A stretch of 64,000 bases of DNA from Lentisphaerae bacterium GWF2_49_21 (GCA_001804805.1 MHBH01000005.1:124618-188617), one strand, 5' to 3'. Counted from the first letter of the stretch, positions 1 through 62,620 are shown. Program-made: numbers and translations. The notes: generated by a model from the letters alone, not told the origin.

Positions 1-342
1 GCGCTTTGCATGAAGATGGTCTTGAAAGTCCCGATGTCCCCGAACACCTATGATGCCGACAGCGTCAGGATTTCCGCGCTTTTCGCGCTTATCGATTTTG
101 GCAGGACGGACATTCTTGCCAAGGAGAAGGCCGAGGATATAGCCAAGGCCTTCCTGAGTCCGCCAAAGAATGATTCGGGTTTTGCATCCATGGTCGGCGA
201 CGGGCTCAGGGATTATGCACGCCAGGCCAAGGCATACATGAACAATGAAAAGGTGGGCCAGTTTGAAGTCAAACCGAGGAGCCCCTTGTTCTTAATAGAG
301 GAGCTGAGAAAGAGAAATGAACAGCAACCGCCACCGCAGTGA
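1..342 (+). CDS. 3' part of a hypothetical protein (5'-truncated by window edge)
   Basis: Frame is open from base 1 to the TGA at 340-342 and overlaps the pyrF start. No recognised motif. Confidence 0.55.
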   Translation, partial: ALCMKMVLKVPMSPNTYDADSVRISALFALIDFGRTDILAKEKAEDIAKAFLSPPKNDSGFASMVGDGLRDYARQAKAYMNNEKVGQFEVKPRSPLFLIEELRKRNEQQPPPQ

Positions 343-2430: not shown

Positions 2431-2910
2431 TGGATGCTTGGATTGTTGAAATCAGAAGAAATATTATCGCACAAAGGCACAAAGCCGCATAGGAATAAAG
2501 ATAAGCAAAAATTTTCGGAAAAGAGTCTGAGAAAGAACCCGTCCCGAGATCTTACAGACCCGGGATCTCCGATTTTCAAAAGGGTTTGTCTCAGCCCGAG
2601 CAAGAATGCTAAGGGAAAATAAACTTGATGACTTTCTTCGTGGTCTTCGGCCTGTTGCGGCGTAGCCTTGGCGAAGATGGATCTTCTTCGTGGTGGAAGC
2701 ATTTCCCGGCTCCTACAGGCCTGGATCTTCGACTTTGTGGCTCAGTGGCTTAGTGCGAGGAAATGAATTTAGAATTTTAATCGGAAACCGGGAATGGATT
2801 GGGATATGAAAATATTTAAAAATCAATATTTGAAAAATAATATTCATTTGTATTATGCCAATATTCTTGCATACGCAACCATCCATCAATCCATTCATCC
2901 AATCATCCAA
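2426..2910. repeat. Composite intergenic repeat region: nested inverted 8-mer tandem-repeat brackets plus three hairpin micro-inserts
   Basis: TGGATGCT/TGGATTGT units (2426-2450) are inverted to ATCCATCA/ATCCATTC/ATCCAATC units (2881-2910). 2467-2493 is inverted to 2733-2758. Inserts at 2542-2572, 2651-2681 and 2704-2733. Confidence 0.7.
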
Positions 2911-7116: not shown

Positions 7117-7545
7117 ATGAAGAAGCTGTTTTTGGCGATGTGCACTGCAATGATACTGGTCGCTGTTTCCGGCTGCTGCAGCAAAGTCTGTGGCCTTAGC
7201 GGAGCCGATGCGGAAGGCGTAAAGACGGTTGGGACGGAAGAGATGCAGAAAATTGTTGAAAAGAAGACCGCATTGATCTTCGATGCGAGATCTGTTAAAT
7301 ATGATACCGGTGAGAGAATCCCGGGAGCAAGGGTCATTTCCACTGAAACTTCATCCGAAGATGTTGCCAATGCCATCATGGGCAAGAATGCGGCAGTCGT
7401 CCTCTACTGCAGCAGCACGAAATGCCCGGCCAGCGGAAATCTCGCAGCCTACCTGAAAAAGCTTGGATATACGAACATCACTGTTTATCCTGAAGGAATA
7501 GAAGGCTGGAAGGCCGCCGGCAACAAGATCGAAAAGCCGGAATAA
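7117..7545 (+). CDS. Rhodanese-domain lipoprotein
   Basis: Signal peptide with lipobox VSGC; IFDARS..Y..ERIPGA, LYCSSTKC, LGYTNI.VYPEGIEGW; GGAGG RBS. Confidence 0.88.
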   Translation: MKKLFLAMCTAMILVAVSGCCSKVCGLSGADAEGVKTVGTEEMQKIVEKKTALIFDARSVKYDTGERIPGARVISTETSSEDVANAIMGKNAAVVLYCSSTKCPASGNLAAYLKKLGYTNITVYPEGIEGWKAAGNKIEKPE

Positions 7546-7632
7546 TGGTACGTATTCAGTAAACTATGCCGTTTGCTTAATCCGTACTAAAAATAAAATG
7601 CAAAATCACTCTTTTTATGATTTTCTGATTTC

Positions 7633-7665
7633 ACGCGGGGCGAAAAAACGCCCCGCGTTTTTTTT
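7633..7665 (+). terminator. Rho-independent terminator
   Basis: ACGCGGGGCG-AAAAAA-CGCCCCGCGT perfect 10-bp stem followed by a T tract, downstream of the rhodanese gene. Confidence 0.85.
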
Positions 7666-7685
7666 GCTCAATTGAAATTAAGAAT

Positions 7686-7755
7686 GTAGCACAGGCATCC
7701 TTCGATAAACTCCTCTCGATTGCACTCGAGACAGGCAGGAAAGGTCTTGCCTGTG
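7686..7755. repeat. GTAG-type REP carrying a doubly nested micro-insertion
   Basis: GTAGCACAGGCA|insert 7698-7744|TCTTGCCTGTG; the uninterrupted form GTAGCACAGGCCTCTTGCCTGTG is at 22796. Confidence 0.8.
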
Positions 7756-7770
7756 ATTGAGATGTTAATA

Positions 7771-7960
7771 TGAGGCAATTTCAAAATGCCTCTTTTAAGC
7801 TGATTTCAAAAGTTGGAGTGCGCTGCTTTAGCGTGTTTAACCTGTTGTCGAAGATCCCGGCCCCAAAGGGTGTCGGGAAATACCAAGACACGCTGAAGCT
7901 GTGAACTCCAACAGGCGTTATTCCCGCAACAAATGTTTTTCGTATTTTTGTAATCAGCTC
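7771..7960. mobile_element. MITE-like repeat family A, copy 1
   Basis: Inverted ends AGCTGATTTCAAAA / TTTTTGTAATCAGCT around a GTTGGAG...CTCCAAC REP doublet; similar copies at 9184-9390 and 40150-40338. Confidence 0.75.
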
Positions 7961-8012
7961 AATATAAGAATCATTACCGGCGGGACGCCAGCGCTACATG
8001 CTGCGGAATTAC

Positions 8013-8074
8013 TTCGAAATTCAGAGTTCAATATTCAGTATTCGATATTATACATTCAGTGTTCGAAGTTCAGG
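8013..8074. repeat. Degenerate 7-mer tandem repeat (TTCRRNN x about 9)
   Basis: ttcgaaa ttcagag ttcaata ttcagta ttcgata ttataca ttcagtg ttcgaag ttcagg. Confidence 0.75.
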
Positions 8075-9183: not shown

Positions 9184-9390
9184 GTTGGAGTACAAGTTTT
9201 AGCTTGCTTAAGTTGGAGATGCGCTGTCCAGACATCGCTGAGCCGGGATCTTCGACTTTAGCGTGTGTGACCTGTTGTCGAAGATCCCGGCCCAGGAGGG
9301 CGTCGGGAAATACCAAGACACGCTGAAGCTGTGAACTCCAACAAGCATTATTCCCGCAACAAACGTATTTCGTATTTTTGAAATCAGCTC
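9184..9390. mobile_element. MITE-like repeat family A, copy 2 (left end lost, extra inverted micro-insert)
   Basis: Near-identical to the right part of 7812-7960, ending TTTTTGAAATCAGCTC; extra 29-30 nt insert at 9227-9256. Confidence 0.75.
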
Positions 9391-21153: not shown

Positions 21154-21282
21154 CTCCTTTGAAACTTGCCTCTGAAGTAGGTCGGGCTTTCCCTTGTCCC
21201 GCCGTAGCATCTTAGCGAAGGCGGAAGCCCGACAAGATGGCGGCCAGGAATGACCGCCCTACTTAACCGGTAAAAGTTTCTT
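21154..21282. mobile_element. 129-bp REP-doublet element, copy 1
   Basis: GAAACTT...GTAGGTCGGGCTT...GCCCTAC...AAGTTTC; reverse-complement identical to 62492-62620 by eye; flanked by inverted 7-mer tracts (21068-21116, 21283-21314). Confidence 0.85.
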
Positions 21283-22795: not shown

Positions 22796-22913
22796 GTAGC
22801 ACAGGCCTCTTGCCTGTGACAGGCCAGAGGCCTATTCTACACTCTTAAGAATGTAGAACAGGCGTCCCGCCTGTCCTTAATGAAACAAAAAACAGGCCAG
22901 AGGCCTGTTCTAC
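22796..22913. repeat. Cluster of two GTAG-type REP doublets
   Basis: GTAGCACAGGCCTCTTGCCTGTG..ACAGGCCAGAGGCCTATTCTAC, then GTAGAACAGGCGTCCCGCCTGT..ACAGGCCAGAGGCCTGTTCTAC. Confidence 0.85.
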
Positions 22914-23960: not shown

Positions 23961-24110
23961 GTAGCACAGGCGCCCTTCGACAGGCTCAGGACAGGTCCCG
24001 CCTGTGATTAATGAACAGGCCAGAGGCCCGTCCTACTTTCTTTAGAACGTGGTACAGGCGTCTCGCCTGTAATTATAAAGAAACAAAAACAGGCAAGATG
24101 CCTGTTCTAC
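23961..24110. repeat. Cluster of two GTAG-type REP doublets, the first with a 23-bp insert
   Basis: GTAGCACAGGCG|CCCTTCGACAGGCTCAGGACAGG|TCCCGCCTGTG ... ACAGGCAAGATGCCTGTTCTAC; same family as 22796-22913. Confidence 0.85.
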
Positions 24111-40149: not shown

Positions 40150-40338
40150 TGAGGCAATTTCAAAATTGCCTCTATTCAGCTGATTGCTTTCGTTGGAGTA
40201 CAAGCTTCAGCTTGCGTAACCTGTTGTCGAAGATCCCGGCCCCAACGGGTGTCGGGAAATACTAAGACAAACTAAAGTTTGGACTCCAACGGGCATGTTT
40301 CAGCGACAACAGTTTAATTGTATTTTTGAAATCAGCTC
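40150..40338. mobile_element. MITE-like repeat family A, copy 3
   Basis: TGAGGCAATTTCAAAATTGCCTC hairpin, AGCTGATT...TTTTTGAAATCAGCTC ends, same central CCTGTTGTCGAAGATCCCGGC..GTCGGGA insert. Confidence 0.75.
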
Positions 40339-40623: not shown

Positions 40624-42678
40624 ATGAAAACCAAAATATCTTCAGGAAAAGTTGAGATCGAATTTGCTGGAAATGACAAGCAGCTTTGGTCATATAAAAA
40701 ACAGGGATGCAAAATCTCAGTTCCGGCTCCAGTATTCGAAATTGACGGACGCAAGACCGTTCTTTCCGTTGATTCCTTCTGCGAAAGATCAAAAAGCAAA
40801 GTTGTGTCCGGAGTTACGGAATATGTCCTGGAAGGCAAGACAAAGTCAAAAACTCATCTGAAACTCCAGCTTGTCCTGCGAATTTCGCAGAAATCTCCGT
40901 TCGTCAGATTCCGCTACATCCTCTCCGGCGATGCCAGGCTTACACGAAGTTCAGAACATGATTCGATCACATATCTCACCCTGGACATGAAGGCTGCAAA
41001 AGAAGTCCGTGAAGTTCGACTCAGCGATTTTGATGAGCTTGTCCATAGTTATATTCCTTCGGAAGAGAATGTCCCGGCGCAATCTTTCAAAGACAAGATG
41101 GCATTGATGGGGCCGATACTGTGCGGAAACGACTCGAAAAAATCATGGCTCTGCGCCTATGAACATGGCTCCCAACCGCCATTCCGGTTCCTAGAATATG
41201 TGCTTGGGCCTGACAGGAAAATTGATCTGCGGGCCGTCCGCGGAAACTACTGCGACGGCTATGACCTGAAAAAAGGATATGAGACAGTCTGGTTCGATAT
41301 TGGCGTCGTTGATGGAAATATTGATGAACTCGCCAAGGCATGGCGTGAATTCGTCCTGCGCTGGATGAGCCCCAATTCAGCGAGCCGCACTCCTTATATA
41401 TTCTATAACACTTGGAACTTCCAGGAGCGTCATCAGGCCTGGGAAAAGGGCAAGTATCTCGACCACATGAACGAGAAGAGGATGCTTGAGGAGATTGAAG
41501 TGGCTCACAAGATGGGCATCGATGTATTTGTCCTCGATACAGGATGGTACCAGAAGACCGGTGACTGGGAAGTCAACATGAAGACTTTTCCGCACGGGCT
41601 CGACCGTATCCGCGAAAAACTTTCCAAATATAAAATGAAGCTCGGGCTCTGGTTTTCCCCGACCCATGCCGCAGTCACAAGCAGGCTTGCCAAGAAACAT
41701 CCTGACTGCCTGATGTCATGGAATGGCAAGAAGAGCACGCCAAATGCCGTATGGGAAACAGAGGAGAGCAGCTCCTATTGCCTTTGCAGTCCGTACTGGG
41801 AATCATTTGCCGACGAACTCATCCGTTGTGTGAAGGAACTCGGGGTGACTTATTTCAAGTGGGACGCGATCGGACAGTTCGGCTGCGATGATCCGGGACA
41901 TCTCCACGGCACTTCGCGAAATTCGCAGGAGGAACGCGCCGACTGCTATGCGTTCGAGCAGGTCAGGTATATGTCGAAAATCATTGACCGTGTCTGCGCG
42001 GCGTGCCCCGAGGCAATAGTCGATTTTGATATCACCGAAGGACACCGTTCCGTCGGTCTGGCATTTCTTGCATCCGGAAAATATTTTCTCATCAACAATG
42101 GTCCATACTACAGATCATTCGATGATCCGCAGTATGCGCCGGGCGGTGGAATGGGAAGCAACGTCTTTGTATTTCCGGGACCTGCGCGCGCACGCCTCTG
42201 CCGTCATCCTCTCGGATATGACAGATGGGTACCGTCGGTGCTTTTCCTGACACATTTCCTTCCTGACGATCCGGAGTCATCACAGCTGATAAACATCGCC
42301 TCGATGATTCTCGGTCAGAACGGGATATGGGGCGATCTTCCGAAGATTTCCCCGGATGGAGTGAAACTCTACGGGCGTCTACTTGGATATTACAAGCAGG
42401 TCCGTGATGAAGTAACTGAGGCGTTCCCTGTGCGTTCCGGTTTCGTTGGCTGCAATCCGGAGATCCACGAGAAGATCGGGAAGAATGGCAAAGGCGTTGT
42501 TTGCGCATTCACCGACAACAAGGGTGCGTATCGCTACATCACTTCCAGGCGCGTCAATAAGAAGATAAAGACCAGCGATGACGTCGTAAAGATCAAAATC
42601 CTGAAGGATGGTCGTGCGGAAATAATCTTCAACTTCGAGCGTGGCGGTGCGAAGATCGCATTTTTCGGGACGGAGTAG
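40624..42678 (+). CDS. GH36 alpha-galactosidase
   Basis: YNTW, DVFVLDTGWY, FPHGL, KLGLWFSP, YFKWD catalytic motif. Confidence 0.88.
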   Translation: MKTKISSGKVEIEFAGNDKQLWSYKKQGCKISVPAPVFEIDGRKTVLSVDSFCERSKSKVVSGVTEYVLEGKTKSKTHLKLQLVLRISQKSPFVRFRYILSGDARLTRSSEHDSITYLTLDMKAAKEVREVRLSDFDELVHSYIPSEENVPAQSFKDKMALMGPILCGNDSKKSWLCAYEHGSQPPFRFLEYVLGPDRKIDLRAVRGNYCDGYDLKKGYETVWFDIGVVDGNIDELAKAWREFVLRWMSPNSASRTPYIFYNTWNFQERHQAWEKGKYLDHMNEKRMLEEIEVAHKMGIDVFVLDTGWYQKTGDWEVNMKTFPHGLDRIREKLSKYKMKLGLWFSPTHAAVTSRLAKKHPDCLMSWNGKKSTPNAVWETEESSSYCLCSPYWESFADELIRCVKELGVTYFKWDAIGQFGCDDPGHLHGTSRNSQEERADCYAFEQVRYMSKIIDRVCAACPEAIVDFDITEGHRSVGLAFLASGKYFLINNGPYYRSFDDPQYAPGGGMGSNVFVFPGPARARLCRHPLGYDRWVPSVLFLTHFLPDDPESSQLINIASMILGQNGIWGDLPKISPDGVKLYGRLLGYYKQVRDEVTEAFPVRSGFVGCNPEIHEKIGKNGKGVVCAFTDNKGAYRYITSRRVNKKIKTSDDVVKIKILKDGRAEIIFNFERGGAKIAFFGTE

Positions 42679-42692
42679 GTGGAGATAAGCCT

Positions 42693-43013
42693 TCAAGAAG
42701 ATGGTGGAGAGGGATTATCTGAAGATGCCTGATTAGATTTTATTCTTGCTATGATTATTTTAATTACTGCAAGCAGTACTATGCTCAAAATAATTTGCCA
42801 AAGCAACATAAAAATAAAATTTATGGGTGTTGATAAAGATAATAATACTGGCCATGCCAATGAATAAGCCCCCAATTTATTAACCAAAATTTCAATCTCA
42901 GAATAGTGGTCAGCGCTGCTTGTAGTTGTGCATATTCCGGCAAGTAAAAACATAATTAATGTTAGGCCTAAGATTATAACTATTTCTTTTGATTTAACAA
43001 TAATTATTTTCAT
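42693..43013 (-). CDS. Small, very AT-rich membrane protein (possible former gene cassette)
   Basis: 2-3 hydrophobic segments; composition far more AT-rich than the neighbours. Confidence 0.55.
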   Translation of the reverse strand: MKIIIVKSKEIVIILGLTLIMFLLAGICTTTSSADHYSEIEILVNKLGAYSLAWPVLLSLSTPINFIFMLLWQIILSIVLLAVIKIIIARIKSNQASSDNPSPPSS

Positions 43014-53502: not shown

Positions 53503-53703
53503 ATGCTTGCTTCTGATGACCCCGGGAAAGATGATCCCAGGATAGCTGCTCTTATAAAGGATTTGGAAAGCAAGACCCCTGAAAAGCAGGTGGCCGCAGC
53601 AGACAGGCTTGGCCGTAGATGTAGTTGGCGCCATTCCAATGCCGTTAACTTAAAATATAACACGTTAATGTCTTGCATGTTATATTCTGATGACGAATCC
53701 TGA
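53503..53703 (+). pseudogene. Possible HEAT-repeat gene remnant
   Basis: IAALIKDLESKTPEKQVAAADRLG resembles one HEAT/PBS repeat, then degenerates into AT-rich palindromic DNA. Confidence 0.3.
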
Positions 53704-53809
53704 AGGGATTGAAGTAATATAGCCTGTGGCTTCAGCCACAGGTTTCGTTTTGGAATTCAATCCCTAGGGTTGAAACCATAGGCTTTATTACCTAACGCAT
53801 TCCATGCGT
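53696..53809. repeat. REP-like palindromic cluster
   Basis: AATCCTGAAGGGATT, AGCCTGTGGCTTCAGCCACAGG, CCTAGGGTTGAAACCATAGGCT and ACGCATTCCATGCGT hairpins. Confidence 0.6.
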
Positions 53810-62491: not shown

Positions 62492-62620
62492 AAGAAACTT
62501 TTACCGGTTAAGTAGGGCGGTCATTCCTGGCCGCCATCTTGTCGGGCTTCCGCCTTCGCTAAGATGCTACGGCGGGACAAGGGAAAGCCCGACCTACTTC
62601 AGAGGCAAGTTTCAAAGGAG
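62492..62620. mobile_element. 129-bp REP-doublet element, copy 2 (inverted)
   Basis: Reverse complement of 21154-21282. Confidence 0.85.

Follow-up and report, generated by a model that had tools for sequence, protein, structure and literature searches.

The stretch of DNA analysed here (the window, 64,000 nt, G000:C5:124618-188617) belongs to the genome of Lentisphaerae bacterium GWF2_49_21, of 5.9 Mb in 91 contigs and 49% G+C, whose closest named relatives are metagenome-assembled genomes (MAGs) of Lentisphaerae and Victivallis with 71-77% amino-acid identity in the one protein compared. At positions 7686-7755 a repetitive extragenic palindrome (REP) carries a small hairpin module in its loop, and this module carries a further hairpin in its own. 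The locus raises the question of whether such hairpins are mobile units and, if so, what moves them. The modules are discrete, sharp-ended, polar and nesting units, added without duplication to many unrelated host repeats, and one of them is common to many phyla.

The host repeat, designated type H1, is present in the window in empty, singly filled and doubly filled form (Table 1). The motif GTAG[AC]ACAGGC was matched 57 times in the genome, and empty H1 copies have loops of 3-5 nt. The three copies are as an earlier note on this DNA had described them; its coordinates all check out, and the focal module A is indeed identical to the copy at 23973 in 18 of 23 positions, agreeing with the A consensus in 20 of 23. 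The 47-nt interval 7698-7744 was also recovered as a filled event, with four empty counterparts, in the genome scan described below, and the same loop position of the H1 REP is taken by three different 23-nt modules. The nested hairpin B is a singleton: the genome has a single true copy of it, and neither 40 relatives, searched with up to three mismatches allowed, nor metagenome contigs, searched for exact matches, have any. It lies in the loop of module A, 1-2 nt or less from the point where 24-nt A-type units nest elsewhere, and by manual alignment it matches the 24-nt A subfamily, of equal length, in 14 of 24 positions. As layout, length and nesting position are in common, hairpin B would be a diverged member of that subfamily.

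Repeats are abundant in this genome, with 1345 canonical 12-mers occurring at least 20 times and 11,347 hairpins with a perfect 8-bp stem, many of them in families with 1-5-nt loops. Insertions were scored without regard to the host: for 12-mers with at least eight copies, an adjacent pair was taken as "empty" and the same pair 14-60 nt apart as "filled", so that events in low-copy hosts were missed. A total of 427 indel events was obtained, whose lengths cluster sharply at 23 nt (42 events), 33 nt (50) and 24 nt (18); tandem repeats of 7 nt account for the events of 14, 21 and 28 nt, and tandem REP units for most of those of 40-41 nt. Filled sites matched to empty copies of the same host repeat numbered 92, at 55 distinct host junctions, and empty hosts are more numerous than filled ones. 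The modules of families A, E/F, D and C are each found at many host junctions (Table 1), which bears out the claim that discrete units were added to pre-existing hairpin repeats and contradicts the converse situation, considered by the earlier note, in which each insert would occur within a single host repeat. Seed searches of the genome and of a block-shuffled genome gave 72 and 3 copies, respectively, for family A, 31 and 3 for E/F, 111 and 0 for D, and 80 and 6 for the core of family C, numbers beyond chance; families E/F and C are put at about 27 and about 74 copies, respectively. The hairpins once regarded as mutually unrelated are really a few dispersed families and are not unique.

A common layout, a hairpin followed by a CA(A/G)G tail, is shared by A, E/F, D and the nested hairpin B; read on the other strand, it is a 4-5-nt CYTG tag at the 5' end and then the hairpin. 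The 23-nt modules A and E/F have the exact size of the host GTAG REP monomer. The tail is CAGG or CAAG in 63 of 72 copies of A and CAAG, CAAA, CAGG or CAGA in 23 of 31 copies of E/F, and most copies of D end in CACGG, CACAG, CAAG or CAGG. The sequence CCTGTTG next to family C belongs to the host loop, as it is found in empty host copies, and the C insert itself begins TCGAAG. The shared polar terminus proposed for all of these hairpins is accordingly real for A, B, D and E/F, but not for C.

In family A the 11-nt loop is constant and the 4-bp stem is variable, with compensatory changes (TCCT/AGGA, CCCT/AGGG, TACT/AGTA, TAGT/ACTA, TCAT/ATGA, GCCT/AGGC and TGCT/AGCA). In a set of 77 matches, some of them due to chance, the Watson-Crick fractions of the three outer pairs were 0.60, 0.74 and 0.74, against shuffle maxima of 0.52, 0.56 and 0.68, all 1000 shuffles remaining below the observed values. 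A variable stem together with a loop that is constant across phyla suggests that the loop is read by a widespread protein. Partial internal duplications also occur in A, with tcaggacagg present twice and cttcgacaagct present twice.

Repeats at the junctions of the 92 events were of 0 nt in 64 cases, 1 nt in 19, 2 nt in 8 and 3 nt in 1, and for D they were of 0 nt in 39 of 42 events. Since they do not exceed 3 nt, there is no target-site duplication, as had been remarked when the inserts were first noticed. Flanks were considered to form a hairpin when at least 7 of 8 flanking bases were paired, flanks re-paired between loci serving as the control. Paired flanks were found for 39 of 72 copies of A (control 11%), 22 of 31 of E/F (27%) and 44 of 111 of D (10%). 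Most insertion points are in the apical loop, where, on the tag strand, the module follows the left arm at a distance of 0-3 nt. In eight D events the module is placed precisely where the stem-side TTAA (or CTA) meets the CTAC tag of another REP family, and further modules are inside 7-nt tandem repeats. Nesting of A in A was seen in five events, at one point (AAGC^TCAGG) and in one orientation, and E/F modules nest in E/F. No conserved target word was detected, the 5' flanks varying among hosts (GCTTT, GTTTT, GGCA, GGCG). With respect to the host, a CTAC-like tag lies 3' of the module tail rather than opposite in 13 vs 0 cases for E/F, 23 vs 1 for D and 11 vs 4 for A, counts that overstate the number of separate events, as copies of one host type are not independent. 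Modules are mostly located between open reading frames (ORFs), with more convergent than divergent gene pairs (31 vs 6 for D, 13 vs 6 for A) and no orientation bias with respect to transcription of the flanking genes (21 vs 19 for A, 13 vs 14 for C, 36 vs 24 for D).

Modules are also found in loops of tRNA-gene fragments, each with an intact tRNA gene beside it: in the anticodon loop and D region of 5' duplicates of tRNA-Ser and in the T-loop of 3' duplicates of tRNA-Arg and tRNA-Gly, where the loops hold pairs of 20-nt hairpins. At C47:12400-12600 and C75:7180-7360 (contig and position in this genome) the intact tRNA-Arg(TCT) and tRNA-Gly(CCC) are each followed, about 40 nt downstream, by a duplicate of the 3' end whose T-loop (TTCG^AATCC) contains two 20-nt hairpins. 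Four ARAGORN intron calls, considered as possible tRNA genes with module "introns", were rejected, none of them being a tRNA gene: the two short calls consist of tandem-repeat or coding-like sequence, and the remaining pair extend over 562 and 875 nt.

Outside this genome, an exact 21-mer of A was found at 122 loci or more in a species-genome collection, in at least 12 phyla, as assigned from record titles, with cultured isolates of Polaromonas, Novosphingobium and Flavobacterium among the bearers. The matches listed include Chloroflexota, Pseudomonadota (alpha, beta and gamma), Planctomycetota, Nitrospirota, Nitrospinota, Acidobacteriota, Bacteroidota, Actinomycetota, Patescibacteria, Desulfobacterota/Thermodesulfobacteriota, Binatia and Eremiobacterota, and the 21-mer is also present in 10 viral contigs of IMG/VR. 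These copies have unrelated flanks and are often in tandem, with a period of 23-24 nt, or inside direct or inverted A-like units. A 14-nt word of the A loop occurs in 3 to 39 copies in five diverse genomes, the reversed control giving 0, and in 38 of 151 sampled genomes of the candidate phyla radiation (CPR, Patescibacteria), where the control gave 0 of 151. A variant of D with 23 specified bases was found at 84 loci, almost all of them in Verrucomicrobiota, Lentisphaerae or Kiritimatiellae, the exceptions being three Sulfotelmatobacter loci, one Patescibacteria locus and one MAG labelled "bacterium". Module D is thus lineage-wide, and A is pan-bacterial.

Table 1. Features of the window (positions from its first nucleotide) and module families of the genome.
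Feature	Length (nt)	Position	Strand	Sequence or context
Doubly filled H1 REP		7686-7755	+	Module A in loop, hairpin B inside module A
Host REP (type H1), left part		7686-7697	+	GTAG 7686-7689, left arm CACAGGC 7690-7696, first loop base 7697
Module A	23	7698-7744	+	Split, 7698-7711 and 7736-7744; interrupted by nested hairpin B
Nested module B	24	7712-7735	+	Stem TCTCGA/TCGAGA (6 bp), loop TTGCAC (6 nt), tail CAGG
H1 REP, rest of loop and right arm		7745-7755	+	TCTT, GCCTGTG; read directly
Empty H1 REP	23	22796-22818	+	GTAG, 7-bp arm CACAGGC, 5-nt loop CTCTT, 7-bp arm GCCTGTG; read directly
H1 REP with single module A		23961-24006	+	23-nt insert 23973-23995, after first loop base
Module D	33	21193-21225	+	Tag-first here (CTTGTC...GGCGGA); in loop of GTAGGTCGGGC-type REP
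Module D		62549-62581	+	Second copy of the D-in-REP composite of 21193-21225, opposite orientation; filled/empty event
D-like module	31	2651-2681	+	Inside CTTCGTGGT-type short tandem repeat; missed by D seed scan
Module C	31	7848-7878	+	TCGAAGATCCCGGC...GTCGGGA; central loop of GTTGGAGT-type repeat, preceding CCTGTTG is host
Module C	31	9278-9308	+	Host position as at 7848-7878
Module C, inverted	29	9227-9255	+	Second position of that host repeat, gcgctg^ctttagcg
Module C	31	40227-40257	+	Filled/empty event
C-like module, inverted form	31	2542-2572	+	Read directly
C-like module, inverted form	29	2704-2732	+	Read directly
Family A	23-24			TCCT-TCGACAAGCTC-AGGA-CAGG; 25 events, 18 host junctions
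Family E/F	23			TCCCAGTC-ATTC-GACGGGA-CAAG and variants; 13 events, 11 host junctions
Family D	32-34			TCCGCC...GGCGGA-CACGG/CAAG; 42 events, 21 host junctions
Family C	29-31			TCCCGAC...GCCGGGA-TCTTCGA; 12 events, 5 host junctions

The other hairpin inserts that the earlier note had listed are all present in the window. For two of them, contigs derived from repeats join 7846 to 7879 and 21192 to 21226, in agreement with the bounds of module C at 7848-7878 and module D at 21193-21225. These joints are from Logan contigs, in which the locus is represented by three runs of two studies, two of the runs being from the same sample. The sides of the joints that skip the modules measure only about 20 nt, so the contigs derive from other repeat copies and speak neither for nor against polymorphism.

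With regard to the enzyme, none of the three kinds that had been suggested as pasting hairpins in trans (HUH/RAYT-like, GIY-YIG-associated or reverse transcriptase-based, RAYT being the REP-associated tyrosine transposase) is encoded in the window, a search for Y1, GIY-YIG and reverse transcriptase (RT) genes having found none there, as previously stated. The genome as a whole has 20 Y1_Tnp matches, five small GIY-YIG genes (84-95 aa), a GIY-YIG open frame of 495 aa, which from its length is taken to be UvrC, and four RT-domain matches. Seven Y1 proteins were compared with NCBIfam: two are TnpA of the IS200 type, and the other five best match REP_Tyr_transpos, with 53.6-76.7 bits, under the 80-bit cut-off. 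Among 18 Y1 genes examined, at least 13 RAYT-like ones have GTAG-type REPs of their own on either side, and two (C43:33398-34061 and C67:22431-23259) lie between H1-type REPs. Because RAYT-like genes are flanked in this manner by their own REPs, H1 included, the host repeats are ordinary REP-RAYT systems, though unusually many: the set is remarkable for its size, each of those 13 or more genes having a different GTAG-type REP family.

It is moderately probable, in our judgement, that the modules are very small non-autonomous REP-like units, mobilised in trans by a RAYT/IS200-type Y1 HUH transposase. Such an enzyme is the best candidate because the chemistry fits (no duplication, strand polarity, hairpin-plus-tag substrates), the modules resemble REP monomers and the genome is rich in Y1 genes; a Y1_Tnp match was also obtained in all five of the diverse A-bearing genomes. 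Modules were added as whole units without target duplication, at single-stranded parts of other repeats, mostly at the apical loop of RAYT-associated GTAG REPs, and otherwise at the linker between tag and stem, in the loop of another module or in loops of tRNA fragments. The insertion step would take place on single-stranded DNA, at exposed loops or linkers, with catalysis in trans by the Y1 HUH transposase. Filled hosts were then probably multiplied together with their own REP family. Near-identical filled sets exist, of nine events for D in the GGTACATGCT REP and six for D in the GTCGGGCT REP, and much of the module copy number is probably co-amplification with the host REP.

Several observations weigh against the transposase reading. 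Independent insertions are nearer 55 than 92, many filled copies of one host type being near-identical. None of the 18 Y1, five small GIY-YIG and four RT genes examined is bracketed by modules, the genes flanked by the same hairpins that had been proposed as a check being thus absent among them, and modules lie within 1.5 kb of only 4 of 20 Y1, 2 of 6 GIY-YIG and none of 4 RT matches. Clustering of 1624 ORFs found within 2 kb of 122 cross-phylum A loci gave no recurrent gene, the largest cluster covering five loci; in the clusters sampled, ORF starts resembled those of ordinary housekeeping-type ORFs, no family search being made on them. Of the interpretation in the earlier note, the discrete units, the lack of duplication and the polar end of A, B, D and E/F are borne out, but no gene examined is bracketed by the modules and none is recurrent beside the cross-phylum copies. 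Among the CPR genomes, 22 of the 38 that have A and 48 of the 113 that lack it contain a Y1_Tnp match, a weak excess, and four with 3-4 copies of A have no Y1 match. Among 123 cross-phylum A copies, the flanks are paired in only 16 (control 12%), so that landing in hairpin loops, which had been proposed as general, holds in this genome but not for the cross-phylum copies tested. Wobble counts in D stems, with G:T in 32 and A:C in 21, single out no strand. No filled/empty polymorphism was found at an orthologous site, relatives being 72-82% identical in the flanking genes and the repeat-filled spacer not alignable. Moreover, as RAYT-REP pairs normally change rapidly from one species to the next, a RAYT is a poor fit as the partner of an A loop that does not vary among phyla. 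From the absent gene association and the constancy of that loop, the partner may be something else. More doubtful, and put forward here as a tentative possibility, is that module A, a 23-24-nt hairpin whose 11-nt loop is invariant, and by extension the CYTG-tagged modules, are among the smallest and most widely shared mobile DNAs, still being pasted into single-stranded DNA without target duplication in at least 12 phyla, CPR bacteria included, and in phage-like contigs, with a mover that is not encoded beside any copy.

Among other explanations, small stand-alone GIY-YIG nucleases, similar to Ssn, could make breaks at which modules are inserted or copied. Five such genes exist, two of them in tandem within the anticodon loop of tRNA-Ser(CGA), each after two 20-nt E/F-like hairpins, and passages of a study of Ssn proteins describe them as site-specific single-stranded DNA nucleases tied to hairpin repeats (PMC11893778). 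This explanation is unlikely, as only one of the five small genes has an A copy within 3 kb, a genome with 22 copies of A has a single GIY-YIG match, of 684 aa and thus of UvrC-typical length, and no small one, and none of the five proteins scores above any NCBIfam cut-off; moreover, GIY-YIG enzymes cut DNA but are not known to join it. A dedicated enzyme would be dispensable if the units arose by template switching or microhomology-primed repair at REP hairpins when replication stalls, a view to which the resemblance of the A 3' end, ACAGG, to the left arm of two host types (CACAGGC and GGACAGGC), the internal duplications of A and the failure to find an enzyme association among the genes examined would lend themselves. 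It is nevertheless improbable: most hosts have no microhomology to the module (64 of the 92 events overlap by 0 nt), the units have sharply defined lengths, peaking at 23 and 33 nt, polarity is nearly constant, and one 21-mer in at least 12 phyla would be hard to obtain by local copying errors.

The conservation of the 11-nt A loop across phyla and the covariation of its stem would also be expected of functional hairpin motifs, DNA or RNA sites for a conserved protein, kept by selection and only incidentally mobile, and the mainly intergenic location with an excess of convergent pairs (D 31 vs 6, A 13 vs 6) agrees with this. It is, however, quite improbable that function is the main cause, given the indifference of orientation to transcription, the lack of any Rfam match on the modules, the nested, tandem and decayed copies, as for selfish DNA, and the lack of a recurrent context at the 122 cross-phylum A loci. 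That nicked hairpin loops receive the copy which a reverse transcriptase makes of a small RNA is very improbable; the genome does have the four RT-domain matches, but no module lies within 1.5 kb of any of them, no 5' truncations, A-tails or target duplications were observed, and there is no transcription-strand bias. Hardly credible, finally, is a single origin of each insert in one host repeat, followed by amplification with the host and without mobility of its own: the near-identical multi-copy filled sets are as it predicts, but each family occupies 5 to 21 unrelated host junctions, and modules are also in tRNA fragments, inside their own copies and, with unrelated flanks, in other phyla.

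Some further observations concern the small GIY-YIG genes. The two tandem genes in tRNA-Ser(CGA), of 88 aa each, are located at C32:227178-227756, and each unit closes with a new copy of the 5' half of the tRNA. In the displaced halves, the anticodon loop, D arm and D loop contain hairpins of 20-31 nt. Small GIY-YIG genes also adjoin tRNA genes directly at C1:42950 and C77:123446, and in C1, at about 42650-42740, a run of N, standing for withheld or unassembled sequence, lies between two partial tRNA copies just upstream of the gene.

Other repeats of the genome and of the window were also recorded. Rfam gave no match on any module; in the window, the only match besides a tRNA was Acido-Lenti-1 RNA (RF01687) at 53696-53742 on the minus strand, with 40.3 bits against a cut-off of 37. 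This match is one member of a dispersed repeat of about 15 copies, with outer stems CCTGAAGGG...CCCTTCAGG and interiors of 81-83 nt, and the Acido-Lenti-1 "RNA motif" may be a repeat element in this genome. Long runs of 7-/8-nt tandem repeats are present in many contigs (e.g., C38:25858, C68:111769, C50:20212 and C71:98070); they are of the GTGTCGG, GGTGTCA, CCTCTGT and CTTTCGCA types, are also hosts for D-type modules and recall the heptamer repeats of cyanobacteria. The spacer that holds the focal locus measures 524 nt between conserved blocks (7538-8062), 139 nt in a genome of the same genus (G008:C261:4889-5027) and about 1790 nt in G004; in this genus, repeat load appears to determine how long intergenic regions are.

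Published work on units so small covers only a few cyanobacteria. To the question of how REPs and other short bacterial repeats spread, this genome contributes dozens of precise filled/empty pairs, a common tag-plus-hairpin anatomy and an insertion rule that applies to this genome, namely loops or linkers of other repeats, in fixed polarity and without duplication. With defined single-stranded substrates and with candidates at hand (RAYT/IS200-like Y1 enzymes and small GIY-YIG proteins), the question of the mover is directly testable. On the practical side, the modules create spurious ORFs and break short-read assemblies.

The elements of the IS200/IS605 group of insertion sequences (IS) move as single-stranded DNA, without target duplication and in one orientation, their hairpin ends being read by a Y1 HUH transposase; they and their miniature derivatives measure at least 100 nt, with unlike hairpins at the two ends and a target of fixed sequence, 4-5 nt long. 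The modules differ from such miniatures in having a single hairpin per 23-33-nt unit and no fixed tetra- or pentanucleotide target, and from miniature inverted-repeat transposable elements in lacking a target-site duplication (repeats of 0-3 nt) and any related IS found beside the copies. Among short palindromic repeats inserted as units, the passages of Di Nocera et al. (2013, PMC3733652) include Rickettsia palindromic elements and intragenic REPs. The modules are shorter and mostly intergenic, whereas the Rickettsia elements lie in frame in genes, where 23-nt units would break the reading frame. Passages on Ssn describe small GIY-YIG proteins acting on single-stranded DNA at a short hairpin repeat, SRM/NTS, with hundreds of copies and spanning phyla; SRM repeats flank ssn genes in 71% of homologues, and the part of the source consulted reports no insertion activity for Ssn (Chenal et al. 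2025, PMC11893778). Here the GIY-YIG genes are not flanked by modules apart from the hairpin pairs that precede the two tandem genes at the tRNA-Ser locus, the other three small genes being without pairs.

GTAG REPs and REPINs are described, in the passages available, as high-copy, intergenic units of about 23 nt with a 4-nt tag and an imperfect palindrome (PMC3733652; Bertels & Rainey 2011, PMC3116915), and excerpts of Di Nocera et al. (2013) mention REP families with long or complex loops and REPs inside other palindromes and inside genes (PMC3733652). The host repeats of this genome are true GTAG REPs, having the GTAG tag and flanking RAYT-like genes. The modules resemble REPs as imperfect palindromes of 23-33 nt, in high copy number and mainly extragenic, but their tag is CYTG instead of GTAG/CGTC next to a 6-13-bp stem, they flank none of the RAYT-like genes among the 18 Y1 genes, they are lodged within other REPs with a fixed polarity, and A is conserved across phyla, REPs being species-specific.

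The earlier note had spoken of an undescribed system. This was overstated, as a comparable class has been published, the small dispersed repeats (SDR) of cyanobacteria, and in size and layout the modules are like REP monomers; on the other hand, no paper with the A sequence or its complement was found by full-text search, much literature lying outside the reach of such a search, and searches on nested or loop insertion of REPs and on small dispersed repeats gave nothing relevant beyond citations of Elhai 2008. In that work, Elhai et al. (2008) are said to have described SDR4-SDR6 of Nostoc punctiforme and relatives as hairpin-linked, dispersed units of 21-27 nt, reportedly nested, in tandem and behaving as insertions into otherwise conserved sequence. 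In a citing paper of 2026, SDR5 is given as a sequence of 21 nt, present in a few heterocystous cyanobacteria and without known function (PMC13756078). As judged from the features reported for them and from this one passage, cyanobacterial SDR would be the closest published class: the modules are likewise dispersed, nested, in tandem and interrupting, D and C being longer (29-34 nt). Unlike SDR, they are found in a Lentisphaerota host and have loops of RAYT-type REPs as targets, their common tag-plus-hairpin layout and polarity are defined here, and module A spans at least 12 phyla, compared with one cyanobacterial family for SDR.

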